Of a DNA stretch of 64,000 bases, positions 24,584 to 53,200 are shown piece by piece. How positions within the stretch are numbered: the first letter of the stretch is position 1; the number at the start of each line of letters is the position of its first letter. The notes beneath the pieces are model-generated. The model was not told the origin of the DNA. It saw only the letters and a program-made list of their open reading frames with translations, and did no database searches. This DNA is from a virus. Both the position numbers and the translations under genes were made by a program. The stretch lies in IMG/VR virus record IMGVR_UViG_3300020474_000005, positions 1 through 64,000 of that record. One strand, given 5' to 3'.

Positions 24584-27500
24584 ATGGCAGATTTTCGAAT
24601 AGATAGGATACGTTTTAAATGGAGAGGTGACTGGACAGCAGGAACTCTTTATGTAAAAGATGATGTCCTAAGATTCGGTGCAAAAGTTTATGTTTGTACT
24701 GAAGTACACACATCAGATTCAAATTTTTACAACGACTTAAACGCAACAATTCCAAGATGGACACAAATGATGGACGGTCAAAGTTGGACCGGCGCATGGC
24801 AACCATCTACATTTTACAAAATAGGTGAACTTGTTAAAGTTGGTGGTCTTATATACAAATGTATAACAGGACACACTTCTAATTCATCAGCATCAAATGG
24901 TGTATTAGGTGATGAAACAAAATGGGTTTACTTTGCTAGAGGAGAAGACTGGGCAAGTGTATGGCAACCAGCGACTCTTTACAACGTTGACCAAACTGTT
25001 ATCTATGGTGGATCAATTTGGAAGTGTAACACAGCACACACTTCTGCCACAGCAGATGACGGTTTGCAATACAACGCGGCATACTGGGATCAATATTCAA
25101 GATCAGACAACTGGAGAGGTGACTGGACACACAATACTTTATACTATCCAGATGATGTTATATACCACGGTGGTATGGTTTACAGATGTCTATCAGGACA
25201 CAGATCTTCCACAACAAATGAATTTATTAGTCCAACAATAAAAACAAGTAACGTATCAGGTACAAGTTTTACATTCGCAATTTTCAAAGTAACAACAACT
25301 TACTATTGTAGAATTATTACTGCTGGTTCAGGATACACAGCACTAGGCACAATCACAATAGATGGTGCGAACATAGGCGGTGTGACTGGAACAAATGATG
25401 CAGTGATTACACTTAACACCGTAGACGGTTCAGGTGCGGTAACGGCAGTTTCAGTTGATGGTACTCCTAATTCAAACACAGATGGCTTAGAAGCCAACCA
25501 AGCACAATGGGAAACTGTTATGGATGGTATTAGATACCAAGGTGATTGGGGATTTGGTAAGAGATATTCAAAAGGTGATTTAGTAAGATGGTCTCCAGGT
25601 ATGTGGAGAACAACAACAGGACACTGGTCAACTACTGGAACTATGGACGAATCCAAGTTTACACTGTGGTTACCAGGATTAGAATTCGAACAACTTTGGA
25701 CAACGTCACAATATTACCAACAAGGTGACATTGTTTTATATGGAGGTTACACATATCTTGCTTTAAAAAGTAACATCGGCGTAACTCCATTAGTAACAGA
25801 TTCAAGCGCCACATGGCAATTACAGATTGTTGGATACACATTCAAAGGCGACTGGGTAGGACAAACAATAGTAAACAACCAACTTACTCCATACGAATAC
25901 AAAACAGGTGATGTTGTAACAGCAGGTGGTCATTTATACATCGCGGTTAGAACGCACAGCAACACAGATCCGAACACGGATACAACCTACGATCCTGGTA
26001 CAGATACTCCATTCCCATGGCAAAAACTTGTAGATGCTCATGCTTGGAAAGGTCCTTGGAAAACACAAGACATCGGTGGCAAAACTGGTGAGTCAACTTA
26101 TTTCCCAGGAGATGTAGTTTCAGTTGCAGGTACAATATATAGATGTATACTAACACACGAAGCAAATTCATCAGATGCTAAACCACCGTTAGACTTTGCA
26201 TCTGAAAACGTTGGACCATATTGGGTATTATTAGCACAAGGTCACGCACCAAACGTATTGGAATATCCAGGTGATGTTAAAACAGTACAATCAGATTCAA
26301 CAAGATTAAGAATAGGTTTAGGAACGGCGGGACAATTATTAAAAGTAAACACAAACGGTTTACCTTATTGGGAAGACTTTGAAGTAGTACAAAAAGTTTT
26401 CTATGTTGCTCCAGAAGGAAATGACACAATTAATAATGGAGATAAATTATCTGCTCCATTCAAAACTATAAAATATGCTTGTGATTACATTCAACAAGAT
26501 TTAAACAACAGAGCACCAGCAACTGTTTTTGTTAAAACAGGAATTTATGAAGAAATATTACCAATCACAGTTCCAAGAGACGTTGCTATTGTTGGAGATG
26601 AATTAAGAAGTACAACAATTAAACCTGCGTCAGGATATGAAACAGGTTATGATATGTTCAGAGTAAACAACGGAACTGGTATTAGAAATTTAAGTTTAAT
26701 GGGACTAACAGGTTCTTTGGGAGCGATGAATTCCTATGGTACAAAACGTCCAACAGGTGGAGCATTTGTTACCTTAAATCCAGGAACAGGTCCAACAGAC
26801 GCAAGTGCATGGATTACAAGTAAATCTTGTTATGTACAAAACGTTTCTACATTTGGTACAGGTTGTATTGGAATGAAAGTAGACGGCGATTTACACAATG
26901 GTGGTAACAAATCAATTGTTGCCAATGACTTTACACAGGTAATTGACCAAGGTATTGGTTATTGGGCAAACGGTGAAGGTAAATCGGAACTTGTATCTGT
27001 GTTTACGTACTATTGCCACATAGGTTATCTTGCTACAAACGGTGGAAAAGTTAGAGCAACAAACGGAAACAATTCATATGGAGATTTTGGTTCGGTTGCA
27101 GAAGGTGTTACACCAACTGAAACAGCAATTACGGCAAAAATTAACAACAGAACAAAAGAAGCGACTGTTGACGCAGTTTACAATGATGAAAACGAAATAT
27201 TTGCATTTGCTTATGCTCATGCAGGTCAGGATTACACATCAGGAACAATTACAATTTCAGGTTCAGGTGCAGGAGCGGCAGGTACTCTTGGATATGCAAA
27301 CACACGTGATGGTGGTGTAAACAGAATTAGATTAATGGGTCCTGGAGATTCTACTCCAGCAGGAGGTGCCGGTTATACAAGTATATCTGGTCCAGCAATT
27401 TCAGGTGATAAAACATCTATCAAACTTAATGCACAATTTCAAGGTACGTCGGCACAGACTATTGGACAAAGAATATACATAAGAGAAGGTACAGGTAGAG

Positions 27501-29749
27501 GACAGTACGCGATAGTTGATACTTTTAACGAAGTGACAAAAGTTGCAACAGTTAAAAAAGAATTTGATAATACACCAGGTTGGCAACATTTACTAGGTGG
27601 CTTCCCGATTGCGGCTGTATTAGATCCATCTACAAAATATTTCATCGAGCCTAGAGCCAGTTTTGCAGAACCAAGTTATACTAGCACAACTCCAAATTTA
27701 GCGATAGCAGGTGATTATCAAGTTGGTTGTCATGGAAGAATAGGTTCTTCTAACATCACAGTATTATTAGGTTCTGGCAGAGGTTCTAGAACATCAGACG
27801 GTACAAACTTTACTACTTGTAGTGGTGTATCCACAACTACTTGGAATGATATCGAAGCAAATCAAAATAAATTTATAGCAGTTTCGTCAAGCGGTGTAGT
27901 AAACACATCTAACGATGGTGCTACATGGAGTGACATAAGTGGTTCAGTTGGTTCAGACACATTCACAGGTGTTGCGGCGATTGGAACAACTTGGATAATT
28001 GTATCAGACACAGGTATTATATATCGTTCAACAGATAACGGTTCAAGTTGGACAAACTCACAAGTAGAACCATATGATGGTTCAACTCCGATATTTAAAT
28101 ATGTTGCGGCAGGTAACGGATTGTTTATAACTTCTAACCAATACGGACAAACTTGGGAATCAGTTGATGATGGTGTTACATGGCAATTGGCGGCAATAGT
28201 TGGTGGACAAGGTGTAGGTGGTTACAAATATCTTGCAAAAGATTTAGTTTTCAAAAATGGAAAATTCTTAATGCCTGTACAAGATTCACCATTAGATGAT
28301 TCAACGTCATTGAATAAAATTTTTGTAACAAACGCTAACGTGGCACAAAGTTCTACAAGTGCAGTTACAACTTGGACTGAATCAGATACTTTACCACACA
28401 GTGGACCTTACAAAGTTACAGGTATGCAAGGAACTTTTGTGGCAATCACTGCAAATGGTGAGGTAGCATACAGTTACGATGGTATGTGTTGGAAACAATT
28501 AACAGGAACACTTTCAGGAACATATGACAAAATTGTTGAAGGAAGAAATTCAGGTGGTTACTTTATTCCACTAAAAACAACTGCAATGAGTTCAGCAACT
28601 GTAATGAAAAAAGGTGCTCCACCATTAGCAAGAGTTATTACAAACGCAGGAAAACTTTCAAAAGTACAAATTTTTGATCCAGGAAGTGGTTATTCGGCGG
28701 CGCCTAACATAACAATTACTGATAATAGAAATACTATAGATGCACAACTGCAATGTAGAATTGCAAATGGTGTACTAGGGCAACCTACATTTACAAACAG
28801 AGGTACAGGATTTATAAATGTAAGTGCAACAATTACTGGTGATGGTTTAGCAGATGAATATCAAGTTGGAAAAGTTGTACAAATAAAAGATTTATCACGT
28901 GAACCTGGTCCAGGAGACTTGTTATACGTGACTGGAATCGCAGATCAAATATATAGAGTTACACAAATTACAAACGTAAGTGGAAGTGCACCAAACTTAT
29001 CAGCAACGTTTAGAATATCACCAAGTTTTAAAGAAAATGAATCTCCGGATCATGAAACAACGTTAACTATCAGACAACAATATTCACAAATTAGATTAAC
29101 TGGACACGACTTCCTAGATATAGGTACTGGTGGAACAAGCACAACAAACTATCCAGACTTATACACTAACCTAGGATTTACTACTGGTTATGAAGCACAA
29201 CAAAATAAAGAAGTTAAAATGAGTGGTGGTGGAAGAGTATTCTACACTTCAACTGACCAAGATGGTAACTTTAGAACAGGTGAATTGTTTGAAGTAGAAC
29301 AGTCAACAGGTATTGTAACACTAAACGCAGACTTATTCAACCTATCAGGATTAAGTGAATTAAGTTTAGGTGGTGTTGTATTAGGTGGTACAGAAGTTGT
29401 AATTAGAGAATTTAGTACAGACGAAACTATGTCTGCCAACTCTAATGAAAAAGTTCCAACGCAGAAAGCAGTTGTTTCTTACATTGGAAACAGAGTATCT
29501 GGCGGTGGTGCTAACTTGAACGTTTCTGGATTTAGAGCAGGTCAAGTTAAAGTAAGAAATGCCGAAATATTTAACGAAGCATTTCCAACTAATGGAACTA
29601 TTACGTTCCCACAAACCACTGAATTAGCAGGTGGAATTGACGGTTACTTGATGGCATTAAACTATTTTACAGGTGGTGTTGCAAGTACAGAATTAAATGA
29701 AGGAGATCCGATTAGTGCAACAGACCCATCTAACGGATATGGACAATAA
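24584..29749 (+). CDS. Giant tail-fibre/baseplate protein A: N-terminal CBM5/12-like repeats, beta-helix, Asp-box propeller
   Basis: Repeats W....Y...D.V.YGG..Y.C...H.S; Asp boxes SNDGATW, STDNGSSW, SVDDGVTW; C-terminal RLTGHDFLDIGTG and STDQDGNFR shared with 29785. Confidence 0.8.
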   Translation: MADFRIDRIRFKWRGDWTAGTLYVKDDVLRFGAKVYVCTEVHTSDSNFYNDLNATIPRWTQMMDGQSWTGAWQPSTFYKIGELVKVGGLIYKCITGHTSNSSASNGVLGDETKWVYFARGEDWASVWQPATLYNVDQTVIYGGSIWKCNTAHTSATADDGLQYNAAYWDQYSRSDNWRGDWTHNTLYYPDDVIYHGGMVYRCLSGHRSSTTNEFISPTIKTSNVSGTSFTFAIFKVTTTYYCRIITAGSGYTALGTITIDGANIGGVTGTNDAVITLNTVDGSGAVTAVSVDGTPNSNTDGLEANQAQWETVMDGIRYQGDWGFGKRYSKGDLVRWSPGMWRTTTGHWSTTGTMDESKFTLWLPGLEFEQLWTTSQYYQQGDIVLYGGYTYLALKSNIGVTPLVTDSSATWQLQIVGYTFKGDWVGQTIVNNQLTPYEYKTGDVVTAGGHLYIAVRTHSNTDPNTDTTYDPGTDTPFPWQKLVDAHAWKGPWKTQDIGGKTGESTYFPGDVVSVAGTIYRCILTHEANSSDAKPPLDFASENVGPYWVLLAQGHAPNVLEYPGDVKTVQSDSTRLRIGLGTAGQLLKVNTNGLPYWEDFEVVQKVFYVAPEGNDTINNGDKLSAPFKTIKYACDYIQQDLNNRAPATVFVKTGIYEEILPITVPRDVAIVGDELRSTTIKPASGYETGYDMFRVNNGTGIRNLSLMGLTGSLGAMNSYGTKRPTGGAFVTLNPGTGPTDASAWITSKSCYVQNVSTFGTGCIGMKVDGDLHNGGNKSIVANDFTQVIDQGIGYWANGEGKSELVSVFTYYCHIGYLATNGGKVRATNGNNSYGDFGSVAEGVTPTETAITAKINNRTKEATVDAVYNDENEIFAFAYAHAGQDYTSGTITISGSGAGAAGTLGYANTRDGGVNRIRLMGPGDSTPAGGAGYTSISGPAISGDKTSIKLNAQFQGTSAQTIGQRIYIREGTGRGQYAIVDTFNEVTKVATVKKEFDNTPGWQHLLGGFPIAAVLDPSTKYFIEPRASFAEPSYTSTTPNLAIAGDYQVGCHGRIGSSNITVLLGSGRGSRTSDGTNFTTCSGVSTTTWNDIEANQNKFIAVSSSGVVNTSNDGATWSDISGSVGSDTFTGVAAIGTTWIIVSDTGIIYRSTDNGSSWTNSQVEPYDGSTPIFKYVAAGNGLFITSNQYGQTWESVDDGVTWQLAAIVGGQGVGGYKYLAKDLVFKNGKFLMPVQDSPLDDSTSLNKIFVTNANVAQSSTSAVTTWTESDTLPHSGPYKVTGMQGTFVAITANGEVAYSYDGMCWKQLTGTLSGTYDKIVEGRNSGGYFIPLKTTAMSSATVMKKGAPPLARVITNAGKLSKVQIFDPGSGYSAAPNITITDNRNTIDAQLQCRIANGVLGQPTFTNRGTGFINVSATITGDGLADEYQVGKVVQIKDLSREPGPGDLLYVTGIADQIYRVTQITNVSGSAPNLSATFRISPSFKENESPDHETTLTIRQQYSQIRLTGHDFLDIGTGGTSTTNYPDLYTNLGFTTGYEAQQNKEVKMSGGGRVFYTSTDQDGNFRTGELFEVEQSTGIVTLNADLFNLSGLSELSLGGVVLGGTEVVIREFSTDETMSANSNEKVPTQKAVVSYIGNRVSGGGANLNVSGFRAGQVKVRNAEIFNEAFPTNGTITFPQTTELAGGIDGYLMALNYFTGGVASTELNEGDPISATDPSNGYGQ

Positions 29750-29784: not shown

Positions 29785-32700
29785 ATGGCAGAGTTTAAAC
29801 TAGGTAGAATACGTTTTGTATGGAAAGGTGCTTGGTACACGAGCACTATATACAGTGTAGATGACGTTGTAAGATACGGTGGTAGAACATATATCTGTGT
29901 TGTCAACCACACGGCTAACGCATCATTTCAAGTTGATTTAACAGCGGCAAATTGGGCGTTGATGTCCGATGGTCAAGAATGGAAAGGCGATTGGAGTCTT
30001 AACACAACTTACAAACCAAACGATATTGTAAAATACGGTGGTTACATTTACATTGCTAACACAGGACACACATCTAGTTCAAGTGCATCAGACGGATTAG
30101 AAGTTGATTCTTCTAAATGGGATTTATTCATTGAAGGTTTTGATTACAAATCATCTTGGGCAATCAACACAAGATACAAAGTTAACGATTTAGTAAAATA
30201 CGGCGGAGTAGTTTATCTTTGTATAACAGAACACACTTCAGCGGCAACAACCGCAGATGGTTTAGAAACTGATCAAGCGAAATGGGAAGCATTTTCAAAA
30301 GGATTCAATTGGTTAAACACTTGGGCAACTAGCACAAGATACAAATCAAAAGACACAGTTTCATATGGTGGACAGATTTATGTTTGTATAACAGGTCACA
30401 CATCAAACGCATCGGCGGCATCAGGATTAGAAGCCGACCAAGCGAAATGGGAATACCTACACAAAGGTATAGAGTACAAAGGTGCTTTCGCAGGTACAAC
30501 AAGATACAAAGCAAACGATGTTGTTAAAGGTGGAGCAAACTTATACATCTGTACAACAGGTTACACATCAACAACAGATATAAATGCAGATGCATCTAAC
30601 TGGTCATTATTTGTTCCAGGTTTAGAATTTGAAGATTCATGGAGTTCAGCAACAAAATATCAACCAGGTGACACAGTTACTTACGGTGGTTACCAATATG
30701 TTGCAAAAACTTTAAACGAAAATAAAGTTCCGTCAACGCAAACAAGTGACTGGGCATTATTTGTAACAGGATTTAATTTAAGAGGCGACTACAACAACGG
30801 AACAGCATACAAAACTGGTGACGTTGTAAGAGTTGGTGGTTTCACTTACATAAACATTGCAGACTCAACAGGTAATAGACCACCTAACGTTGTATACTGG
30901 AACAAACTTAATGAAGGTATGTACTGGAAAGGCAACTGGGCCAATGCAACTTATTACGACAAAGGTGATATTGTAAGAGGAACATTAAACACAGATACAT
31001 CTTATATTTGTGTTGGTTCGCACACATCGAACAATCAAGCACCAAGCACAATCAATCAACCAGATTATCCAGCAGGAGCAGGTGTAGACACATCTAACTG
31101 GCAATTATTATCAGGCGGTCCTGAAAATGATGTATTATCTGCACAAGGTGATATTTTAATTTACGGTGCATCTGGTCCACAAAGATTACCAATTGGCACA
31201 TCGGGACAAGCATTAGTTGTTAATGCGGCAGGTACTTTACCAGAATGGGGCAACGTAGGTAAAATTGATCAAGTTTATTATGTAAGTCCAAATGGAACGG
31301 ACAAACCAGCACCAACATCAGGTGTAACTTTAGATAGAGCATGGAAAACAATTAGATATGCACTTCATGAAATAGATAAAGGTCCTAGAAACCCACAAGC
31401 GGCTTATATGCTTACAAGAAACAAAGCATACATCCAAGATGAAACTATTGCTTGGATCAATGCACAGATTGCCGGTAACGTTCCACCATTTACAACTTCG
31501 TTCACATACGGCGCAGTAAAATGTAGAAGAGACATTGGTATAATCATTGACGCAACAATCTATGACTTAACACACGGTGGAAACATTAAATCAAGATTTG
31601 CGGCATTAAATTACTTTACACCAGCAGGTGCTTCTTATGTAACAGGACAAACGTCTGAAACAGCGGCGTCTATTGTTCAGGCAAGTGCTATTGCTAAATT
31701 AGTTGTTGCAAACGGAACACACAGTAACTTACAAGGTTCAACACCTAAGTATGCAAATGCGGCTTACACAGCAGAAGAAGGTACAACTACACTAATTGAA
31801 ACATTGATGAAATATTCATCAGATGCAATCACGGCAGGTAACGTAACAAGTGTACCAGTAGCAAACAATCCAAACATTACTTTAAATGTTAAAACAGGAA
31901 TTTACAACGAAATTCTTCCAATGAGAGTTTCAAGAAACACAGCAGTTGTTGGAGATGAATTAAGATCAACAAACATCAGACCAGCGGCTTCAGTTGTTAA
32001 CTCTTCAGATGTACAATACAGTCTACAAGGTATACAACGTATGGAAGCAATTATAAGCGATGTTGTACAAAACAACTCAGTAACAAAAACACCATCAGGT
32101 GGTGTTGTGTCAGTTACTATGCCAGGTGGTTACATAGGTGTAACTCAAGGTACAGGAACAGCAGTTTCTTCAACTGGTGGTGATGGTACAGGTGCAACAT
32201 TTAATATCACAACTAACGCATTTGGTTTCGTAACTAATTTAACAGTGGCGGCTCCAGGACAAAGTTATATAATTGGAAACAATATTACAATACCAGCAAG
32301 TACAGTTATCGTTGGAACAAGTGGTAACACAACACTTGGTGTTGCAGTTACTTTCCCAGTTACAGCAGTAACTTCAGGAAACACACTAACACAGAACACA
32401 GATGCTCCGGCAGGTAACGCGACTGTTGGTACTAGAGCGGCTACAATCGCTGATCAAATTGAGAAGTACATTGACTTCAAAATCAACGCAAACGGTTCGG
32501 AACCAGCACTTCAAGGTAGCAATATTGCTGAATTTACAGCGGCTTACACAGATGCAAGATTAAGACTTTTAGCAAACAAAGAATTTATTGCCAAAGAGGC
32601 GGCTGAATATGTGAAAAGACAAAACCCAGGCGTAAGTTTTGTTGTTGCAGATTGTGAAGATGACATCAAAGATTACGTAGACGGAATTATTCACGACTTA

Positions 32701-35460
32701 CAATACACTGGTAACCAAAGATCATTACAAGGTGCAGAATGGTATGTGAACGCAGTACAAGGTTCAACTACTAAAAATATGTTCCATATGAGAAATGCAA
32801 CTGGTTTAAGAAACTGTACACTACAAGGTTTAACAGGAACACTAGGATCAGCAAACAGTTATGGTACAAAACGTCCATCAGCAGGTGCTTTTGTTTCACT
32901 AGATCCAGGATACGGTCCACAAGATTACAAAACATGGATTGCTACTCCGGCGGCAGGTACATTATCATACACACCAACTAATGGTACATATGATCCTGCA
33001 ACAGGAACAACAGTATTAACAATTGGTGCTCACAACATGGAAGCAGGTGAGTCTGTTAGAATTACAACAGCAAGTTTAAGTTTCCAATGTTCACAGGACA
33101 ACTACAACACAACTCATGCTTATCCAAGAACAACTGACCCAGCGGCAGGTAAAGAATTATTAATCGAAGCAGTCACTGACACAACAATTCAAGTTAATGT
33201 TGGTGCAAGTGGCGGCGGAGACCAATACATTCACAGATGGGTAAGTGCATCAGCAAACTCAGTACAACAAGAAGTTGTATGTAGAGTAGGTGGTAGATCA
33301 CCTTACGTACAAAACGTAACAAACTTTGGTACAGCGGCAATTGGATTAAAAATTGATGGTAACTTACACGAAGGTGGTAACGATTCAATCGTTGCTAATG
33401 ACTTCACACAGGTAATTTCCGATGGTATAGGTGCTTGGGTAACTAACTTAGGTAGAGCAGAACTTGTTTCTGTATTCTCATACTACGGACACATAGGTTA
33501 CCTTGCAGAGAACGGTGGAAAAATTAGAGCAACAAACGGTAACTCATCATATGGTGACTTTGGTTGTGTGTCAGAAGGTGTTGACTCAACAGAAGTTCCA
33601 ATTACAGCAACAGTTGACAACAGATCAACAGATGCACTTGCAGATGTATTCACAGACGGAAGTGCGATACAGGCGCTATTCTACAAAAACGCAGGTAGAG
33701 AATATGTTGCTAACCAAGTAACTTTAACTTTCTCAGGTGATGGTTACGGATTGAACACACCAGCGGCAACAGTTAATACAGGTGGTATATACGAAATTAG
33801 AGTAACTGATCCAGCAGGTAACAACTTGGGTGGTGACGGTTACATTACAACAACTAACTCAGCACAAACAGGAACAACAACACAGATCACTTTAGCGGCG
33901 GCAGACAGCAGAGCCTCAAGTGCTTATGTTGGTATGTTCTTATTAATTACAGAAGGTAAAGGTGCAGGTCAATATGGTTACATTGACACTTACAGTTCAG
34001 CAAGTAAAATTGCAACAATTAAAAAACTTTCAGACAACAGTGCAGGTTTTGATGTACTAGGTGGCGTAAGTGTTGAAGCAAGTTTAGATTCTACAACAAC
34101 TTATGAAATTACTCCAAGAGTACAGATAGGTGCACCGGCAGGAGATGGTTCAACTGCAACAAGAAACGCAGTTGGTATAGCAACAGTTGTAACAAATAAA
34201 ATTACACAAATTAGAATGATCGATTGTGGTGCTTCTTACACAACTGCACCAACAATAACACTTGTTGATCCTAACAACACAGCGGACGCAACATTACAAT
34301 CTTACATTGGTGATGGTGTGTTAGGTCCACCAACATTTGTTGCAAGAGGTATTGATTACAAAACAGCGGCAGTAACTATAACTGCACAAGGTACACAGGC
34401 AACTGTGACAGGTATCACACAGGCTGGACCTGCAGTGGTAACAACACAGGCGGCTCACAACTTTAGCACAGGTGATAGAGTTAAATTCACTGGTATAGTT
34501 GGAATGATAGAATTGAATACTGCTGTGTTCTATTATGTAAAAACTATAAACGCAACTACATTTTATCTTTTTGCTGATAATGACTTTTTAGTTCCAATAG
34601 ATTCAACAAATTACACTGCATACTCAAGTGGTGGTACAGCAGAATTGTTTGGTGGATTTAGAGATTCACATCAATCAGGCAAATACATACAAGTAGAAAA
34701 TTTAAGTGCTTTACCAAGAGCAGGAGCAAACATCGAGTTTGGTCACAGACCAGGCATTTACTACAAACTAGTTGCTATCACTAGTCAACTTGGAACACAA
34801 ACACCTTACAGTGCATTGTTACAAGTTTCACCAAACGTGACGGCGCAGTATGCACCTGACCATGGAACAAGTTTATCTATAAGAATTAGATATTCACAAA
34901 ACAGATTAACAGGACACGATTTCTTAGATATTGGTACTGGTAACTTCACTTCAACGAATTATCCAGGCTCACCAAATCAGAATCCAATACCGGCTAACGA
35001 AACTGTTGAAGGCGGCGGAGGTAGAGTATTCTTTACTTCAACTGACCAAGACGGTAACTTCAGAGTTGGTGACTTGTTCAACGTAGAACAGGCAACAGGT
35101 ATTGCGTCATTGAATGCAGATGCATTCAACATTTCAGGACTACAAGAATTACAGTTGGGAGATCTAGCATTAGGAGGATCTAGTGCTTCAATTAACGAGT
35201 TTTCAACTGATGGAACGATGGCGGCTAACTCAGACGCTATTGTACCAACACAAAGAGCAATACGAACTTATATCGCTTCACAGATCGGTGGTGGTGCTAG
35301 TTCGCTCAATGTTAACTTAATTACTGCTGGATTAGTGGTAATTACGGGTAATACAATAAGTACAAGTAACAACAGTAAAATTACTATTAGCAGTGTTGCA
35401 AACTTCACAAAAGGTGTAACTGGTGTGCCAATAGCGATGAATATGTTGATACATAGTTAA
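29785..35460 (+). CDS. Giant tail-fibre/baseplate protein B with CBM-like repeats and two phycobiliprotein-like helical domains
   Basis: Paralogue of 24584 (MAEFKLGRIRF vs MADFRIDRIRF). Extra inserts: KCRRDIG...Y.L..GGN, DCEDDIK, and an E1-FCCH-like segment ITQAGPAVVT...HNFSTGD. Confidence 0.8.
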   Translation: MAEFKLGRIRFVWKGAWYTSTIYSVDDVVRYGGRTYICVVNHTANASFQVDLTAANWALMSDGQEWKGDWSLNTTYKPNDIVKYGGYIYIANTGHTSSSSASDGLEVDSSKWDLFIEGFDYKSSWAINTRYKVNDLVKYGGVVYLCITEHTSAATTADGLETDQAKWEAFSKGFNWLNTWATSTRYKSKDTVSYGGQIYVCITGHTSNASAASGLEADQAKWEYLHKGIEYKGAFAGTTRYKANDVVKGGANLYICTTGYTSTTDINADASNWSLFVPGLEFEDSWSSATKYQPGDTVTYGGYQYVAKTLNENKVPSTQTSDWALFVTGFNLRGDYNNGTAYKTGDVVRVGGFTYINIADSTGNRPPNVVYWNKLNEGMYWKGNWANATYYDKGDIVRGTLNTDTSYICVGSHTSNNQAPSTINQPDYPAGAGVDTSNWQLLSGGPENDVLSAQGDILIYGASGPQRLPIGTSGQALVVNAAGTLPEWGNVGKIDQVYYVSPNGTDKPAPTSGVTLDRAWKTIRYALHEIDKGPRNPQAAYMLTRNKAYIQDETIAWINAQIAGNVPPFTTSFTYGAVKCRRDIGIIIDATIYDLTHGGNIKSRFAALNYFTPAGASYVTGQTSETAASIVQASAIAKLVVANGTHSNLQGSTPKYANAAYTAEEGTTTLIETLMKYSSDAITAGNVTSVPVANNPNITLNVKTGIYNEILPMRVSRNTAVVGDELRSTNIRPAASVVNSSDVQYSLQGIQRMEAIISDVVQNNSVTKTPSGGVVSVTMPGGYIGVTQGTGTAVSSTGGDGTGATFNITTNAFGFVTNLTVAAPGQSYIIGNNITIPASTVIVGTSGNTTLGVAVTFPVTAVTSGNTLTQNTDAPAGNATVGTRAATIADQIEKYIDFKINANGSEPALQGSNIAEFTAAYTDARLRLLANKEFIAKEAAEYVKRQNPGVSFVVADCEDDIKDYVDGIIHDLQYTGNQRSLQGAEWYVNAVQGSTTKNMFHMRNATGLRNCTLQGLTGTLGSANSYGTKRPSAGAFVSLDPGYGPQDYKTWIATPAAGTLSYTPTNGTYDPATGTTVLTIGAHNMEAGESVRITTASLSFQCSQDNYNTTHAYPRTTDPAAGKELLIEAVTDTTIQVNVGASGGGDQYIHRWVSASANSVQQEVVCRVGGRSPYVQNVTNFGTAAIGLKIDGNLHEGGNDSIVANDFTQVISDGIGAWVTNLGRAELVSVFSYYGHIGYLAENGGKIRATNGNSSYGDFGCVSEGVDSTEVPITATVDNRSTDALADVFTDGSAIQALFYKNAGREYVANQVTLTFSGDGYGLNTPAATVNTGGIYEIRVTDPAGNNLGGDGYITTTNSAQTGTTTQITLAAADSRASSAYVGMFLLITEGKGAGQYGYIDTYSSASKIATIKKLSDNSAGFDVLGGVSVEASLDSTTTYEITPRVQIGAPAGDGSTATRNAVGIATVVTNKITQIRMIDCGASYTTAPTITLVDPNNTADATLQSYIGDGVLGPPTFVARGIDYKTAAVTITAQGTQATVTGITQAGPAVVTTQAAHNFSTGDRVKFTGIVGMIELNTAVFYYVKTINATTFYLFADNDFLVPIDSTNYTAYSSGGTAELFGGFRDSHQSGKYIQVENLSALPRAGANIEFGHRPGIYYKLVAITSQLGTQTPYSALLQVSPNVTAQYAPDHGTSLSIRIRYSQNRLTGHDFLDIGTGNFTSTNYPGSPNQNPIPANETVEGGGGRVFFTSTDQDGNFRVGDLFNVEQATGIASLNADAFNISGLQELQLGDLALGGSSASINEFSTDGTMAANSDAIVPTQRAIRTYIASQIGGGASSLNVNLITAGLVVITGNTISTSNNSKITISSVANFTKGVTGVPIAMNMLIHS

Positions 35461-41134: not shown

Positions 41135-42085
41135 ATGAGCAATTCGAAAAGACCTAAGGCTTTTTTTCTAAATGGCGGAATGGGAAGAATAATATCTGCG
41201 ATTCCTGCCTTGGAAAAATATTATGAATCAAAGGAAGATCCTGATTTTATTATTGTGATTGAAGGTATTTGTAATATCCTAAATGGACATCCAACATTGG
41301 ATAATAAAACTTATGATATGTATCATAAAAATTTATTCCACACAAAATTAATTAACATGGACATAGTAAGTCCTGAACCTTACAGACTGAATGAATATTT
41401 CAATCAGAAATGTGACATCGCCCAAGCATTTGATATACTGATTAACAAAAAAGGAGTAAGAAAATTGCCTGCTCCAACGTTAATATTAAGTAAAGAAGAA
41501 CTTTTAGAAGGAAGAAAAGCAGTAGATGAAATAAAAGAAAAAGTTAAGAAAGAAAAATTAGTCATCATACAACCTTTTGGACGTGCTATTACACAAATAG
41601 ATAATTCTTTCATAGACAAAAGCAATAGAAGTATAGAATTCACAAATTTAAAAAAAATTATTAAAAAATTACAAGAAAAAGATTGGGCAGTATGCGTAAT
41701 GGCTGAGTTCGGAATAGAATTTAAAGACGCAGGATTTAAAGATGAGGTTGCTATTCCTGAAATAGCAGATTTACGTAACTGGGCAGGTTTAATAAAGTAT
41801 GCAGATCACTTTTTAGGATGTGATAGTGTAGGTCAACATCTTGCAAAAGCAATGGAAACTCCAGCAAGTGTTGTTATGGGAGCAACGTATCCGATAAACA
41901 CTTCATATCCAGACGATAAAAGTTTTAAAATTATTGATATGGGACAATTTGATAGAGAATATGACCCTATAAGAATAAGTTTCGATGAAAGGATCAGTAG
42001 AAAGCATGAAAGAATTATGTCAATGACTCCTGAAATAGAAGATTATGTAGTGTCTGCTGTTAACGGAGATCCAATAGAGGAATAA
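41135..42085 (+). CDS. GT9/heptosyltransferase-like (GT-B) protein A
   Basis: N-terminal GGMGRIISAIPAL; IIQPFG; C-terminal ADHFLGCDSVGQHLAKA (GT9 DSxxxHxA donor-binding motif). Confidence 0.65.
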   Translation: MSNSKRPKAFFLNGGMGRIISAIPALEKYYESKEDPDFIIVIEGICNILNGHPTLDNKTYDMYHKNLFHTKLINMDIVSPEPYRLNEYFNQKCDIAQAFDILINKKGVRKLPAPTLILSKEELLEGRKAVDEIKEKVKKEKLVIIQPFGRAITQIDNSFIDKSNRSIEFTNLKKIIKKLQEKDWAVCVMAEFGIEFKDAGFKDEVAIPEIADLRNWAGLIKYADHFLGCDSVGQHLAKAMETPASVVMGATYPINTSYPDDKSFKIIDMGQFDREYDPIRISFDERISRKHERIMSMTPEIEDYVVSAVNGDPIEE

Positions 42086-42086
42086 C

Positions 42087-43919
42087 ATGAGTGATGATTT
42101 AAACAAATACAACAAAACAGGATACATAGCCGCAGTGGCAAGAGGTCACAACGCAGGTGTATGTTTACTGAAAGACGGCAAAATAGTATTTTCAATAGAA
42201 GAAGAAAGACTATCAAGAAGAAAATATGATGGTGGTCCTTATGCTTCCATGTTTGAAATATTAAAATACACGGACAAGATTGATTACCTAATAATTGCAC
42301 ATACACAATCATTGAAAGATCCATCTACTGGCAGAGTAGATTATTCAGGAGATGATGTATACACAGGTATTGCTAGAAAGTTAGGATTAATAGATCCATA
42401 CATTCATAAGATAGAACATCCACAAGTTATTGACTTATCACATATACACCACAAACTTCATGCCGCGTGTGCATTTTATAGATCAGGTTTTGACAAAGCA
42501 GTTGCAGTGATTGTTGACGGTGCAGGAACTTTTATACCTATTAAGAATAGTGTAGCAGGTGACATGACTGTATTTGAAGTTGAAAGTATATTCAGTTGTG
42601 ATTATCCTAATGATATCTTTGCACTGTACAAACATTATGCAACAGGCACAGCAAGTCCAGGAGGTTACTATCCTGAAATGGATTCGGAAAGTATTAGTGA
42701 ACCAGGAAAAACACATGAAGCATTATTCACAGACAAAGCAGGCATAACAAAAACATATGAAGCAATAACTCAGTATTGTGGATTCAGTGCCATTGAGGCA
42801 GGAAAGACTATGGGATTGTTTCCTTATGGAAAGAAAAATGATGTAATACCACCACTGTTTCAAAAAGAAGGAAAATTTGAATTATCAAATAGAAACTTTA
42901 TCATACCAACTTACCCAAATGCGGCGCAGGTAAACAGTCAAATATATCCTTTTGTGGATGCTAATCCTGATTCTGATAAAGGCGAAGATTGGACAAAAAT
43001 GCAAAACAGAAGAGACATGGCTTACGCAGTACAAAAAGAAACACAGAAACAATGTTTAGATTTAATTTACAAAGCAGTTGAGATGAGTGGATGTAAAAAT
43101 GTTGTGTTTTCTGGAGGATACGGATTAAATTGTGTGGCAAATTATTATTATCTTGAAAGTTTACAAAAAGACGGTATTAAGTTATATGCTGAACCAGTTT
43201 CAAATGATGCGGGAACGGCAATGGGTGCGGCTATGTTGTTCTATTACAGCCTTACACAAACAAAAGAAAAGAAAGTTGATGCACCAACTTTGTACTTAGG
43301 TCCAAAAAGAGAATACACACAAGAGCAAATAAGCGGAATATGTCAAAGACCAGGTGTTGTTTTAGAAGATTGTGACGATTCTAAAGTTGTAGAACTTTTA
43401 GTTAATAAAAATATTGTATCAATATTCCAAGGGCAAAGTGAAAATGGTCCTAGGGCATTAGGTAATAGAAGTATTTTGTTTGATCCAAGATTCAAAGACG
43501 GTAAAGATTATGTAAACAGAGTGAAAAACCGTGAATACTTTAGACCATTTGCTGGAACAATACTTCATGATTACGTGCATGATTGGTTTGATCTACGTGG
43601 AATGGAAGAAACTCCACATATGATGTATGCTGTAAACTGTCAACCAGGTATAGAAGAGAAGATTCCAAGTATAATTCACGTGGACGGTACTTGCAGAATA
43701 CAATCTGTGAAACGTGAACAGAATCCTTTGTATTATGACCTAATAAAAGAGTTCCATAAACAAACAGAATGTCCTATAATTTTCAATACATCATTTAATT
43801 TAGGTGGTGAACCATTAGTTGAGACATTAGAAGACGCAGTAAGAACATTACAACACAGCGAAATAGAATATCTATATTTGCCAGAGTACAAAAAGATAGT
43901 AAAGGTTTTAAATGGCTAG
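42087..43919 (+). CDS. Carbamoyltransferase, NodU/CmcH/TobZ family
   Basis: EEERLSRRK, HHKLHA..AFY.SGF, VDGAG, GKTMGL.PYG, SGGYGLNCVAN, DAGTAMGAA, GPRALGNRSIL, KNREYFRPFA, HVDGTCRIQ, NTSFN. Confidence 0.93.
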   Translation: MSDDLNKYNKTGYIAAVARGHNAGVCLLKDGKIVFSIEEERLSRRKYDGGPYASMFEILKYTDKIDYLIIAHTQSLKDPSTGRVDYSGDDVYTGIARKLGLIDPYIHKIEHPQVIDLSHIHHKLHAACAFYRSGFDKAVAVIVDGAGTFIPIKNSVAGDMTVFEVESIFSCDYPNDIFALYKHYATGTASPGGYYPEMDSESISEPGKTHEALFTDKAGITKTYEAITQYCGFSAIEAGKTMGLFPYGKKNDVIPPLFQKEGKFELSNRNFIIPTYPNAAQVNSQIYPFVDANPDSDKGEDWTKMQNRRDMAYAVQKETQKQCLDLIYKAVEMSGCKNVVFSGGYGLNCVANYYYLESLQKDGIKLYAEPVSNDAGTAMGAAMLFYYSLTQTKEKKVDAPTLYLGPKREYTQEQISGICQRPGVVLEDCDDSKVVELLVNKNIVSIFQGQSENGPRALGNRSILFDPRFKDGKDYVNRVKNREYFRPFAGTILHDYVHDWFDLRGMEETPHMMYAVNCQPGIEEKIPSIIHVDGTCRIQSVKREQNPLYYDLIKEFHKQTECPIIFNTSFNLGGEPLVETLEDAVRTLQHSEIEYLYLPEYKKIVKVLNG

Positions 43920-47259: not shown

Positions 47260-50200
47260 ATGGCTAAAAAACGAATAAACGACTATAAATTTATACCAGG
47301 TATACCTTCAACAGGTAATCTTTATCCTAATGCTTGGGCACAACTAAATGCCAACTTTGAATTTTTAAAAGATGAAGCAACGGCTTTTATTGCTTCAAGA
47401 GTAACAACAGACACAGCATACAATCCCTACCCAAATGCATCAGCAAGAATAGTAAACAACTTAAATTACATCAAGGCGGAAGTTGCCAAGTATGTTGAAA
47501 ACCAAGTTGCAGGAAACGTGGCTCCATTTGCAGGTTACACAGGTTTATCAGCGAACATCAAAGCAGACGTTGAGAAAGTTGTTAATGCGGCATACAAAGA
47601 CACAAGATATGGTGGTAACGAAAGAATGCGAACACAATCCAACACATACTATATCGATGGTGTACTACAATTAGGAGACCAAGGTAATCCTGAAATACAA
47701 TATTTGACTTACGCAAGAACTTTGATCGACAGTTACATCTTACCAGGTGTTGCTAACTCTACAATAAACACAGAAGGAATATCACAAAACACTTCAGGTT
47801 CTAATGGAGAAGCGGCTGGTAGAACATTGATGAAGTCAAACATGGATGTAATAATTAATGCGATTGACAATGGAATACTTACTTTACCAGCAGAAGTGAT
47901 TTCAAGTTATCCATTTGCAGATTACACATATGACTCTTACCTTTGTGAAAGAGATATGGGTTACAATCTAACTGGTATATTAAAAGATTTAAGATATGGT
48001 GGAAATGAACAATCAAGATACAACGCAGGAACTTACTGGAACGGTGAAGTATCTGTTTTAACAGGAAATAGACAACCAGAAATACAAACAAAAAATGAAA
48101 TAAAAAGCATTATCAACAATTACATTTTTCCTGGTACAGCATTTTCAAGCAGACAGAGTCCTGTTGTTACACAACAAACAATTTTAGGTTCAGCAGGTGA
48201 ATCTGCGGCAAGTACAAGAGTTACGAGTTTATTCGGAATAATCACAGACGTGATACAAAATGGTTTAGACAACTTACCTGCACAGGTATCAAACGGAATA
48301 TCTAGTGTAAAAATTCCTGAAAGAGTTGAATTAGCAGAATTATTATTGATCACGAACACTACAGACAACACAGTATTATACACATTCAACGACGCGACAC
48401 AAGGTGCAACAGTAAGTTACAAAAGAGAATACGAAACAGGAACATCTAACACAACAGCATTTGTTGATCCAGATTTTCCTAAGGCATATCACGGAAATGA
48501 TGTAATCACTACAATATTTTTAAATGCTGATACATCAGCAGATGCCTCAACAGATGAAATACAAATATTTGTTGAAGATGATGAAGTAAGAACACGTCCA
48601 CATGACTTTGGAACAGATGCGATTGAAAGACTTAGAGTTGCACAACCAGAATCAATGCTTGACGCTGACTTTGAATACGGACTTCAGCCTACGAAGTGGC
48701 AAGCGATTGCAACACAAAGAGGTTATCCATCAATTTATGAAGTACCAGGTACAGACTTTGATATAGCAACTGTAACTTCTGATGCTTCTGCGGGAACACA
48801 AGGTATTGGTTCATCTTTAATCACTGTGACAACAGTAGGTCCACACAACTTTGAAGCAGGACAACCGTTTACAATTACAGGATTTAACAACGCAGTATCA
48901 GGTTCAAGTAGAGCGGCGGGTTCATTTGTTGTAAACACTATTGTAAGTAACACACAATTTACATACTACGCAAAAGCAAAAGTTGCCGTTGCAAACCCAA
49001 CAACGATTTCTACAACTAACACACAGTTAAGAGAAGGTGACTTCTACACAGGAGCGGCGATTGGATTTCCTTCGTTCAGTGTTGCAAGTAATGGTTCTTC
49101 AGGAACTTTCACAACAACAATAAGTGCTTTAAGTGGTGCGAGTATTTTACCATACACAGGTACAACGCCACCAATTGGTGCACCTTTATCAGGAACAGGT
49201 ATACAAACAGGTACACAGGTAACTGGTGCTAACGGATCCGGTGGTTCATTAGCATCTCCAAACGTTACAGGAGACTTTTTATCAGGTGTTACAGAAATTA
49301 CTGTGGCAAGTTCAGCAGGTATTGTGCAAAACTCAGTAATTGATAGAGGAGATGGTTACGCAGTTGCAATCACAAACATCGCTGGAAATAACTTAACATT
49401 ATCAGGACCTCTTACACAAAATTTAATTGGTGACATTACACAATACACAGGACTAGCAGGTGTAAATTATAACCCAGCGGGACAATTAGCAACATTTGAT
49501 ATCACTAGAAATGGTGGAAACTACTCCGTTGTTATTGCGGGATCAGGTCAAGACTACACAGTAGGTGATGCGATAGTTGTAGCAGGAACAACTCTAGGTG
49601 GTTCTACTCCAGCCAATGACGCAACAGTATTAGTAGAAAGTGTAGACACAGGAGGAGAAATCCTTACAGCAACTATTTCAGGATCTGCATTCACTGGTTC
49701 AGGAAGCACAACAGGTACACCAGCAGTATTCCAAGGTGGATTAGGACAAGGTGCACAACTCAATGTAACAAAAACAAACCAATCTTACACAGTTGCATTA
49801 AATTCACCAACTTACACAGGCACAGCAGTAGGAACTTTCCCAGGAGCGGCAGGTTCAAGTGCAACATTTGATGTTGTTGCAACAGCAGGATCTTATTCTG
49901 CAAGTGTAAACGGAGCAGGTACAGGATACATTGTCAATGATGTAATTAGAATTGACGGTTCAACATTTGGTGGTACAAGTGCCAACCATGCAAACATCAG
50001 AGTAACAGCAGTAACAGGTGGTGGAGCAATTCAAACACTTTCAGTATTAGGTACAGCACCAGCACAGACAGTAACTTATAACACAGTTGCATTTACAGGT
50101 GGTAACGGTTCGTCAGCGGCATTTAACATTACGAGAACAGGTACAACTTATTCAGCGGCAATTACAAATTTAGGTTCTAACTATCAACAGAATGATATTT

Positions 50201-53200
50201 TAACTTTCGTTGGAACAAATCTAGGTGGTGCTACAACTGCCAATGATGCGGCATTAGAAGTAACAGCAGTTGATGGCAATGGTGGAATTTTAACTTTCAA
50301 CGTTACAGGTACAGCGGTTGATACAAAATCTTACACAGCAATATCAAGCGGTACAAACTTATCAGGTGTTGACGCAACATTTGATGTTGCAATTTCTGGA
50401 ACATCTTATTCAGTATCAGTAAACCAAGCAGGTAGCGATTACAGTGTAGGACAAGATTTAAAAATATTAGGAACTTCTTTAGGTGGTACAACACCAGCAA
50501 ACGATTTAACAATAACAGTAGCATCAATCACAGGTTCTACTGGTGCAGGCCCTATCAACACAATTTCAACATCAGGCACAGCGGCACTAGAAGGAACAAA
50601 TGGTTACAAAGTAGGTGATCGATTCTTAGTAGGCGGCGGTGACGTAGGTGGAGTGGCAACAACCAATGATGCTTATGTGGCTGTAAGTGGTGTAAACGGT
50701 ACAGGTGGTATCACAGGTGTAACAATCAGTGGTACGGCAACAGATGCCAATGTAGATTATACAAGTCCAGCATACACAACATCCGCTTCGGGTACTGGTG
50801 CAGTGTTTGATATAAACAGAACAGGCACAACTTATACAGCAACATTCAGCAACAATGGTAGTTCATTTGTAGGTGCAGAAACAATAGATATTGCGGGTAC
50901 GGCATTAGGTGGAACAAGTCCAGCAAATGATTGTCAAATTACTGTTGACACAGTTTCAGCAGGTGCGGTAGCAACATTCACAGTAACTGGTACGGCTGTA
51001 AACACACAGGTTTACAACAATGTTAACAAAGCAGGTATAACAGGAACAGGTTTAAGTGTTAACGTAACACTGAACAGTGGTTCTTACAACGTTGCACTTA
51101 ACAATCCAGGTGCAAACTACGCCGTTGATCAAACATTTAAAATTGCAGGAACAGATTTATTTGGTACATCACCAACAAACGATTTAACTTTTACAATCAC
51201 AGCGGTAAACAATATTCCAAGTGGTGTTGTAACAACAATAGGCAGTGTGGCAGGAACGGCAAACACAGGTACTGGTAACTCTTTAGGAGTAAGTGGTACA
51301 AACAGAACTCCATCAGGAGTTGGTGCTCAGTTCAGTGCTACAAGATCCAACCAGACTGACTCTTCAACAGCATACACAGAAGTTACAATAACAAGTTTAG
51401 GTTCGAACTATGCAATAGGTGACAAACTTGTGATAGCAGGTACTAGTTTAGGTGGACAAACTCCGGCAAATGATATCACGTTAAGAGTTCAAAGTGTAAA
51501 CACAACTGGCGGAATATTGACACAAACACACAGCGGTACAGCAGTGGCTGGTACAGGATTAAGTGTGTATGGTTCGATATCTATATCAGAAACAATTTCA
51601 CAAAACATCGCACAGAACAGCACAATAAGTTACAGTGCGTTAGCAACTATACAGGTAGACTTTACTACTCCTCACGGACTAGTTCCAGGAAACGCATTCT
51701 TGATTGTGATACAATCAGATGACGGTGCCAATAATCACATACTTGCATCAGGTCCATTCCTAGCAACGGCAATTCCATCCTCAACAAGATTACAATATCA
51801 AGTTAGATCTCCGGGTGCAATAACAGATTCAGGTTGGCAAGGTTTTGTATATGCAAGACCAGATTCATTCTTTATACATAGACCATTTGATGGAGGTGTA
51901 CAATTAGGTACAGGTGGTCCATCACACGGTGCACAGGCGATACGTCAATCTAAAAAATACATTAGATATCAATCAGGTAAGGGTTGTATGTATACGACGG
52001 GTGCCTTGTTTGCTCCAAGTTATGACCTATTGACTGTGACAGCAGACGGATTAGCACAGGGATCAACAATCACAGTAACGACTGATGATGTTGACCACAA
52101 TTTACAGGTAGGTGCTAGAATAAGATTGATTGGTATTGCCACATCGGGTTATGATGGCACATACACTATCGCAAGTATTGTAAATGAAAGAACATTTACA
52201 GTATTGGCAACTATCGCACTTGGCGGAACGACAGCAGAATTTACAGATCAACCACAGGTATCATTGTATCAATGGAATGGTGCAACTGTAAGATCAGGAA
52301 TATTTGATGACCAAAACGGAATTTATTGGGAATATGATGGACAAACAACAAACGCAGTACAAAGAACAGCAACAAGACAACTTGCAGGTGTAGTAACTGT
52401 TACACCTAACAGTAACACTGTATCAGGAACTGGTACAAGATTTAGAGAACAAGTTAAAGCAGGTGACAGAATAGTAATCAGAGGTATGACACACGTTATA
52501 TCATCTGTTGCTTCTAATACATCAATGTTTGTTACTCCAGATTATAGAGGTGTCAACACTTCAACTGGTGTAAAAGTTTGTGCTGTTGTAGACAAAAAAG
52601 CAAAACAATCAGAATTTAATAGAGATAAAATGGACGGTAATAGCAAGAGCGGTTACAATTGGGACGTATCTAAGATGCAGATGATCGGGATACAATTTTC
52701 ATGGTACGGGGCTGGATTTATTGACTGGATGGCAAGAGGTCAAAAGGGTGACTTTATATTTGCTCACAGAATGAGAAATTCAAACATTAACACAGAAGCA
52801 TTTATGAGAACAGGTAACCAACCTGTACGTTACGAAGTAACCAACGAAGGTCCAAACGGTAGATTAGAATTAGATATGACAACTGTACAAACAACTGTAC
52901 AATTAGTTGATGCAAGTTTCTTTCCGTCAACAGGTGGAACAATTTTCATAGACAATGAAATTATCACTTACACAGGTAAGACAGGTGACGTATTGACTGG
53001 TGCCACAAGAGCGGCAACACTTACAAACTTTAACGCAGGTGCTACAAGAAACTATACAGCCGGCGCGGCAACAACACACTTTAGAAACACAGGAGTTGTG
53101 TTAATATCTAACACAGCATCACCGATCATATCACACTGGGGATCAGCATATCTAACAGATGGTAACTTCGATGAAGATAGAGGATATCTATTCAGTTACG

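Follow-up and report, generated by a model that had tools for sequence, protein, structure and literature searches.

Phycobiliproteins are viewed as proteins of the light-harvesting antennae of cyanobacteria and algae. Bacterial relatives of these proteins, the BBAGs, were described only in 2023 (PMC10151467). BBAGs and photoglobins/photocobilins are phycobiliprotein paralogues outside the phycobilisome; some of them have a C-x-R-D motif and bind bilins without a lyase. In non-photosynthetic organisms they accompany a PcyA-like reductase and a heme oxygenase (Rockwell et al. 2023, PMC10151467). Heme oxygenase/reductase cassettes are also found in phages; in phages of heterotrophs their role has been stated to be unknown, host BBAGs or phytochromes having been considered (2024, PMC11480375). 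A preprint (bioRxiv 10.1101/167650, citing Jia 2010) reports that some cyanomyophages adsorb only in the light and suggests light-induced changes of the tail fibres. Here, a window of 64,000 nucleotides was analyzed, comprising positions 1 to 64,000 of the 76-kb IMG/VR virus record IMGVR_UViG_3300020474_000005, whose completeness is about 22% according to CheckV. One gene of this window encodes a fibre protein, P0001, that carries two helical inserts, hereafter copy 1 and copy 2. Profile comparisons and predicted structures show these inserts to be globin domains homologous to phycobiliproteins and devoid of the X/Y helices.

By homology to fibre families and by its position in a baseplate/fibre module, flanked by genes for baseplate wedge proteins and a gp10-like connector, the open reading frame (ORF) of P0001 is of the tail-fibre type. 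The protein is made of N-terminal CBM5/12-like repeats, a beta-helix-like body that holds the two inserts, and a C-terminal region in common with a paralogue encoded in the same window.

29785..35460, + strand: fibre P0001, 1891 amino acids; phrog_9851 (E 2e-204) and PF02839 (E 1e-33); outside the inserts, 29-48% identical to the paralogue
24584..29749, + strand: paralogous fibre, 1721 amino acids; same framework, without the globin inserts and without a match to the repeat hidden Markov model (HMM)

When both fibres were compared by BLASTP, the N-terminal repeats, the beta-helix and the C-terminus were aligned, and residues about 535-700 and about 735-997 of P0001 were left without a counterpart; in the paralogue, about 12 residues lead from the cap helix to 'VKTGIY', and about 35 onward to 'DMFRVNN'. 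An initial annotation of the window, made from the letters alone, had described two helical inserts missing from the paralogue, and the alignment bore this out. The Cys codons that it had placed at 31522 and 32653 were exact, TGT being present at both (K-C-R-R-D and D-C-E-D-D), as were the peptides it had quoted.

Copy 1 sits between the cap helix of the fibre and its first beta rung, and strands of the fibre body separate it from copy 2.

31387..31896, + strand: copy 1, a complete globin domain that covers residues 535-704 of the fibre; matched by positions 1-169 of the repeat HMM (E 6e-64) and supported by AlphaFold2, Foldseek, VIA and hhalign
31519..31533, + strand: copy 1 motif K-C-R-R-D; Cys580 (codon 31522-31524) on Cys84, Arg582/Asp583 on Arg86/Asp87, in the equivalent of helix E
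31876..31980, + strand: fibre-body beta strands between the inserts (N-I-T-L-N-V-K-T-G-I-Y ... V-V-G-D-E-L-R-S-T), also present in the paralogue; strands at residues 179-213 of P0002, the 481-residue segment of the fibre encoded by 31342-32784

The structure of copy 1 was predicted with AlphaFold2 using a 122-copy repeat alignment (A2), which gave a model of six helices with a predicted local distance difference test score (pLDDT) of 93.5 and a predicted template modelling score (pTM) of 0.88. All matches listed by Foldseek for this model in the PDB were phycoerythrin or phycocyanin chains, with template modelling (TM) scores of 0.56-0.61. When the model was aligned by VIA-align to 48,161 representative chains, the top eight positions were all taken by the phycobiliprotein family (allophycocyanin, phycoerythrin and ApcE), with Z 13.5-10.9 and a root-mean-square deviation (rmsd) of 2.0-3.7.

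Allophycocyanin: Z 13.5, rmsd 2.0 over 115 residues
Phycoerythrin: Z 13.1, rmsd 2.8 over 139 residues
ApcE bilin-binding domain: Z 12.3
Five more phycobiliprotein-family chains: Z 11.9-10.9
Globin-coupled sensors, RsbR and photocobilins: Z 8-10
Haem globins: Z 6-7

This order, in which phycobiliproteins precede photocobilins and sensor globins, and these precede haem globins, is that of the published phylogeny of bilin-binding globins (PMC10151467). The structural alignments begin at residue about 34-36 of the phycobiliprotein chains, and the X/Y helices are therefore missing from copy 1. The remaining helices of the phycobiliprotein globin fold (A, B, E, F', F and G/H) are present. Both the absence of the X/Y helices and a phycobiliprotein-like globin fold had been foreseen in the initial annotation; in Foldseek as in VIA, phycobiliproteins were the nearest structures.

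Sequence profiles led to the same family. Compared to 177,635 distinct PDB sequences, the A2 profile produced seven matches at E<=10, all of them phycocyanin alpha (best E 0.01), with the repeat Cys on Cys84 and the preceding helix aligned too. The likeness of copy 1 to the Cys84 motif of phycocyanin alpha, which the initial annotation had pointed out, is thus more than chance. Alignment of A2 by hhalign to ten phycobiliproteins of a Synechococcus metagenome-assembled genome (MAG) reached a probability of 89.9% (P 1.7e-6) over 102 columns, again with Cys on Cys. A phmmer search of PDB sequences with the 481-residue segment returned noise only. It is concluded that the domain represents a genuine, though distant, branch of the phycobiliprotein superfamily, outside the Pfam family PF00502 as now defined.

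The size and distribution of the family were assessed by a full HMMER search with P0002 against 1.84 billion representative proteins, which yielded 843 matches. Most of these are giant proteins in which the first insert is repeated head to tail every 150 residues or so, up to 35 copies being found in one of 6382 amino acids (P0003), and they are encoded on IMG/VR viral contigs, several of 230-330 kb. Among about 1440 copies aligned to the repeat model overall identity is just 20-35%, and a few columns are nearly invariant: Arg at Cys +2 (95%), Asp at Cys +3 (99%), Asp at Cys +14 (99%), Tyr at Cys +30 (99%) and the Cys itself (97%), which falls on the bilin-attachment Cys as the initial annotation had it. 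A G-G-N motif is strongly conserved too, and each copy has a single conserved Cys. The resulting family motif, K-C-x-R-D-[VI]-G ... D-L-x-x-G-G-N, is almost invariant and aligns with the chromophore site of phycocyanin alpha.

Among cultured phages, tblastn located the domain in 165 records, all from cyanomyophages; one of them, Syn9, has at least three tandem copies in the giant putative fibre gp101 (NC_008296.2, 60762-78992). In BFVD, the same fold was found in many cyanophage proteins labelled 'tail' or 'structural', with TM up to 0.87, none of those examined being annotated as a globin. A DNA pattern of the motif, searched in 185,579 prokaryote species, each represented by a single genome, occurred in 25 stretches from scattered taxa, all on MAG contigs, and in none of the isolate genomes among the species scanned, so the family is essentially viral. 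The MAG contigs concerned (L119-L143) are assigned to Verrucomicrobiales, Rhodobacteraceae, Planctomycetaceae and Euryarchaeota TMED129, and include a 194-kb Synechococcus contig; most likely, they are phage contigs binned into MAGs. Judged by these sequence data, the domain is a building unit of giant phage fibre shafts and belongs to a large, essentially viral family of tandem repeats of about 150 residues. Additional copies are encoded in the window itself, at the start of another ORF of 2336 amino acids (47260..54270).

47431..48300, + strand: two more copies at the N-terminus of this ORF (E 5e-18 and 2e-25)

Cys and Arg are gone from the first of these (47431-47886, N-I-K-A-D), and C-E-R-D is kept in the second (47896-48300). 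With a weak extra match at 47326-47424, this second giant structural ORF has 2-3 copies of the domain.

Copy 2 is split into pieces which, relative to the repeat model, are out of order.

31984..32100, + strand: copy 2, piece 1, a helix at repeat model positions 79-117; weak match (i-E 0.1-0.5); helix at P0002 residues 221-243 with pLDDT >90
32089..32376, + strand: beta-rich domain nested in copy 2, approximate coordinates; strands at P0002 residues 255-343
32419..32487, + strand: copy 2, piece 2, equivalent to the last helix of the domain and placed before its first ones; helix spanning residues 360-382 of P0002
32551..32769, + strand: copy 2, piece 3, which corresponds to the first domain half (positions 4-83 of the repeat model, E 2e-13), with Cys957 (codon 32653-32655) in C-E-D-D

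The weak second-half match at 31984..32100 recurs in every orthologue, and the two upstream pieces, once joined, match repeat model positions 80-146 with 14.6 bits. When copy 2 was re-ordered as first half, upstream helix and last helix, its score increased from 53.0 bits to 67.3 bits, with a single uninterrupted match spanning positions 4-142; in 20 shuffles of the added pieces the score was at most 58.5 bits. These results support, at the level of sequence, the earlier proposal that copy 2 is a circularly permuted globin domain. An AlphaFold2 model of P0002 (pLDDT 84.5, pTM 0.80) shows in succession a cap helix, copy 1, beta strands, a long helix, the beta domain (residues 255-343), another long helix and four helices with Cys957. 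The fold assigned to copy 2 draws on the HMM matches and on the secondary structure of this model; VIA, run on all 481 residues, is dominated by copy 1, being a sequential aligner blind to a permuted domain. Such an arrangement would probably have originated when the end of a tandem repeat became joined to the start of the repeat following it, the two parts folding as a single permuted globin whose new termini would lie at a native loop between the two helices after the Cys helix, a configuration that would suit a beta-helix loop as the site of insertion. A subset of orthologous fibres lacks the nested beta domain and shows a gap at this place (L080-L087).

The state of the motif in both copies was compared in 38 distinct orthologous fibre segments, given here as copy 1 / copy 2.

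CRRD / CEDD, the state of P0001: 21 orthologues
WRRD / CKRD: 9 orthologues
CRRD / CERD: 5 orthologues
CRRD / WKKD: 1 orthologue
AERD / CKRD: 1 orthologue
CRRD / CSRD: 1 orthologue

A full C-x-R-D was found in copy 1 only in 22/38, in copy 2 only in 10/38 and in both copies in 6/38; it was absent from both in 0/38. This distribution is suggestive of a complementary keeping of at least one intact motif per fibre, suggestive rather than statistical because the orthologues form a few clades. The position of the attachment Cys has turned to Trp twice: in copy 1 of an N-W-R-R-D clade (L071, L073, L080-L083 and L087), with Arg and Asp kept, and in copy 2 of one fibre with W-K-K-D (L069). The initial annotation had seen the bilin-attachment Cys in both inserts of P0001; the motif is complete in copy 1 (K-C-R-R-D), and in copy 2 its Arg is gone.

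The supply of pigment was considered by searching related records for bilin genes. Five jumbo records with giant repeat proteins were inspected, and an adjacent pair of heme oxygenase and reductase genes was present in three of them (G001, 92% complete, G002 and G005), the reductase of these cassettes being PcyA/PcyX-like; neither gene was found in the other two (G003 and G004). Among fragments with orthologous fibres, 1/5 has a reductase. In G002 (locus L032, G002:C1:141689-145240), genes for a ClpS-like adaptor and an IbpA-like small heat-shock protein precede the heme oxygenase and PcyA/PcyX-like reductase pair. The reverse test started from 30 viral contigs that carry a reductase and measure 60 kb or more, and the domain was present in 11 of these: in 6/7 jumbo records at least 46% complete and in 5/22 fragments at most 40% complete, and it was absent from a complete phage of 65 kb.

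As the best explanation for these observations we propose that phycobiliprotein-like globin domains have been grafted into loops at the start of the beta-helix-like body of the fibre and that copy 1, through Cys580, would bind a linear tetrapyrrole, most likely by a thioether formed without a known lyase, probably autocatalytically as in ApcE and BBAGs. Binding by copy 1 is suggested because its near-invariant motif aligns with the phycocyanin alpha chromophore site; taken as a whole, the proposal seems to us to stand at even chances. The initial annotation had likewise suggested that a tetrapyrrole may be bound covalently and that virions may be pigmented or light-responsive, a reading for which the grounds are the conserved motif and the uncontrolled co-occurrence with bilin-synthesis genes in related jumbo phages. 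The bilin would be provided by the host or by a phage heme oxygenase and PcyX-type reductase and would be taken up during assembly in the cell, so that the released fibre would carry pigment. Any ligand, its identity and its role, which may be stabilization of the bead or absorption of light, are inferred.

A number of findings weigh against a bound pigment. Single sites are dispensable: the Cys of copy 1 is replaced by Trp in one clade and by Ala in one fibre. In copy 2 of P0001 the Arg position of the motif is taken by Asp, and in Syn9 gp101 the three motifs are C-E-D-D, C-K-T-D and C-K-D-D, with Arg replaced in all of them; because copies of gp101 read so, a Cys-x-Asp-Asp sub-type exists. 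PF00502 does not match the inserts even at E<=10, nor anything else across the 76-kb record. In that record, family searches retrieved no phycobiliprotein, bilin reductase, CpeT or CpeS, and no heme oxygenase either, for which no separate search was made; this absence says little because the record is about 22% complete. The jumbo record G003, by contrast, is 93% complete and has 18 copies of the domain, yet contains neither heme oxygenase nor reductase, and in the jumbo phages that carry both, the bilin cassette is about 150 kb from the repeat protein. Finally, the counts of co-occurrence between domain and bilin genes are uncontrolled for lineage, portal-similar contigs being almost all below 20 kb, so they fit shared ancestry as well as a functional link.

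Much of this would also suit a domain that descends from a bilin globin and works today as a ligand-free apo-globin bead, a rigid spacer or decoration in which C-x-R-D and G-G-N are kept for folding or domain packing. Long head-to-tail arrays in fibre shafts are a typical structural use, fibres persist in which Cys is changed to Trp or Ala and Arg to Asp or Thr, and many carriers are without bilin genes. Coloured phage particles are not reported in the literature searched, and no lyase of the CpeT (PF06206) or CpeS (PF09367) type was detected in the 76-kb record or in four related jumbo records, all of these being fragments and E/F-type lyases not having been searched. Packing alone hardly explains, however, why a lone unpaired Cys is retained with its phycobiliprotein Arg and Asp partners in 97% of about 1440 divergent extracellular copies; every orthologous fibre, besides, has at least one complete motif, and most reductase-positive jumbo phages have the domain. 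A purely structural bead is the main rival reading and in our opinion less likely than a bound bilin. Less probable still is that the pocket holds something other than a bilin, such as haem, a host small molecule or a component of the host surface, or that the Cys cross-links the fibre by disulfides between chains or copies. The domain has a globin fold, with haem sensor globins among its matches at Z 8-10, the fibre has carbohydrate-binding modules as well, and it acts outside the cell, where disulfides are stable. Against this, phycobiliproteins score Z 13.5 versus Z 6-7 for haem globins, the conserved residues are those of the phycobiliprotein chromophore triad, and the near-invariant columns include no conserved His or other haem ligand. 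Haem was rejected as a ligand on account of the missing His.

It may also be asked whether the resemblance is due to convergence or is an artefact of modelling, the inserts being an unrelated helical bundle. The signal from sequence to solved structures is marginal (E 0.01), Pfam finds no family at all on the inserts at E<=10, and helical models often attain a VIA Z of about 13 by chance. Nevertheless, four independent lines of evidence (the PDB profile, Foldseek, VIA and hhalign, the latter at P 1.7e-6) converge on the same family in the same residue register, and the VIA ranking fits the published globin phylogeny (PMC10151467), which makes an artefact very improbable.

The phage in which this fibre occurs was characterized from the other genes of the record. 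Genes for a portal, baseplate wedge proteins, a gp10-like connector and a tail sheath denote a T4-like myovirus. The portal is nearest, at about 50% identity, to those of jumbo myoviruses of proteobacteria and not to those of cyanophages, the closest being Agrobacterium Atu_ph07, Sinorhizobium Phosso, Xanthomonas XaC1 and Yersinia fHe-Yen9-04; by blastn, only short matches to cultured phages were obtained. Portal kinship, together with the completeness of about 22%, points to an uncultured jumbo phage with a genome of about 350 kb and a host that is probably non-photosynthetic. Pfam recognizes five CBM_5_12 repeats and one E1_FCCH-like domain in P0001. Both fibre paralogues open with 5-6 such chitin-binding-type repeats (29785..31150 and 24584..26300) of the pattern W-x-Y-x-x-G-D-x-V-x-Y-x-G-x-x-Y-x-C, which also contain those conserved Cys of P0001 that do not belong to the inserts. 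The E1_FCCH-like small beta domain lies in the distal fibre (34429..34641; PF16190, E 1.5e-10) and is an unusual Pfam match for a phage protein. Within the structural gene block, a Nol-like carbamoyltransferase (phrog_1601, E 1e-162) and a weak GT9-like glycosyltransferase are encoded at 41135..43919; this pair may modify a glycan of the virion or of the host.

Our full-text literature search, which did not cover all journals, found no paper on phycobiliprotein-like domains in phage structural proteins. The family described here constitutes a large viral branch of the phycobiliprotein superfamily in which the chromophore triad is kept. Its members form part of extracellular fibres and are found even in phages that have phages of proteobacteria as their closest cultured relatives. 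New in fibre P0001 are the domain as an insert in a beta-helix loop, a natural circular permutant with a nested domain, and intact motifs that complement each other; its occurrence in a jumbo phage with a portal nearest to those of proteobacterial jumbo phages such as Atu_ph07 is also new. Two open questions become testable, namely the purpose of phage-made bilins and the light-only adsorption of some cyanomyophages, and cultured carriers exist (Syn9 and S-PM2). We tentatively suggest, at somewhat below an even chance, that phage heme oxygenase with PcyX or PebS makes bilins whose missing acceptor is the fibre, to which they would be attached covalently, and that the chromophore could underlie light-dependent behaviour; the tie to cyanomyophage adsorption is speculation.

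Compared with the light-harvesting phycobiliproteins (CpcA/B, ApcA/B and CpeA/B; PF00502) and the ApcE domain, the viral domain agrees in its globin-type fold from helix A on (VIA Z 13.5-10.9) and in the K-C-x-R-D-[IV]-G-Y register of the Cys84 helix, which is preceded by a similar helix and an F-x-Y-D motif. It differs from them in lacking the X/Y helices, so that no alpha/beta heterodimer or disc is expected, and in having its own conserved D-L-x-x-G-G-N and Tyr, PF00502 being blind to it. Moreover, it is tandemly fused or inserted in phage fibres, with one copy circularly permuted, and is found in extracellular virion proteins, those of non-cyanophages included. With Z 9.2-9.7, photocobilin chains are poorer matches to copy 1 than phycobiliproteins. 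BBAGs, which are cellular proteins of a single domain, are encoded beside the bilin genes, whereas the viral domains are repeated, lie within structural proteins and, in phages that have a bilin cassette, are about 150 kb away from it. The same domain is found in the giant fibres of T4-like cyanophages, such as Syn9 gp101, which is annotated as a virion structural protein and putative fibre, and the 'short tail fibre' or 'tail protein' of S-PM2, S-RSM4 and S-CAM1 (phrog_9851, phrog_4527 and phrog_701). These cyanophage giants are annotated as fibre or structural proteins only, none of those examined as globin or phycobiliprotein-like, and the phage of fibre P0001 belongs, by its portal, to a different group.

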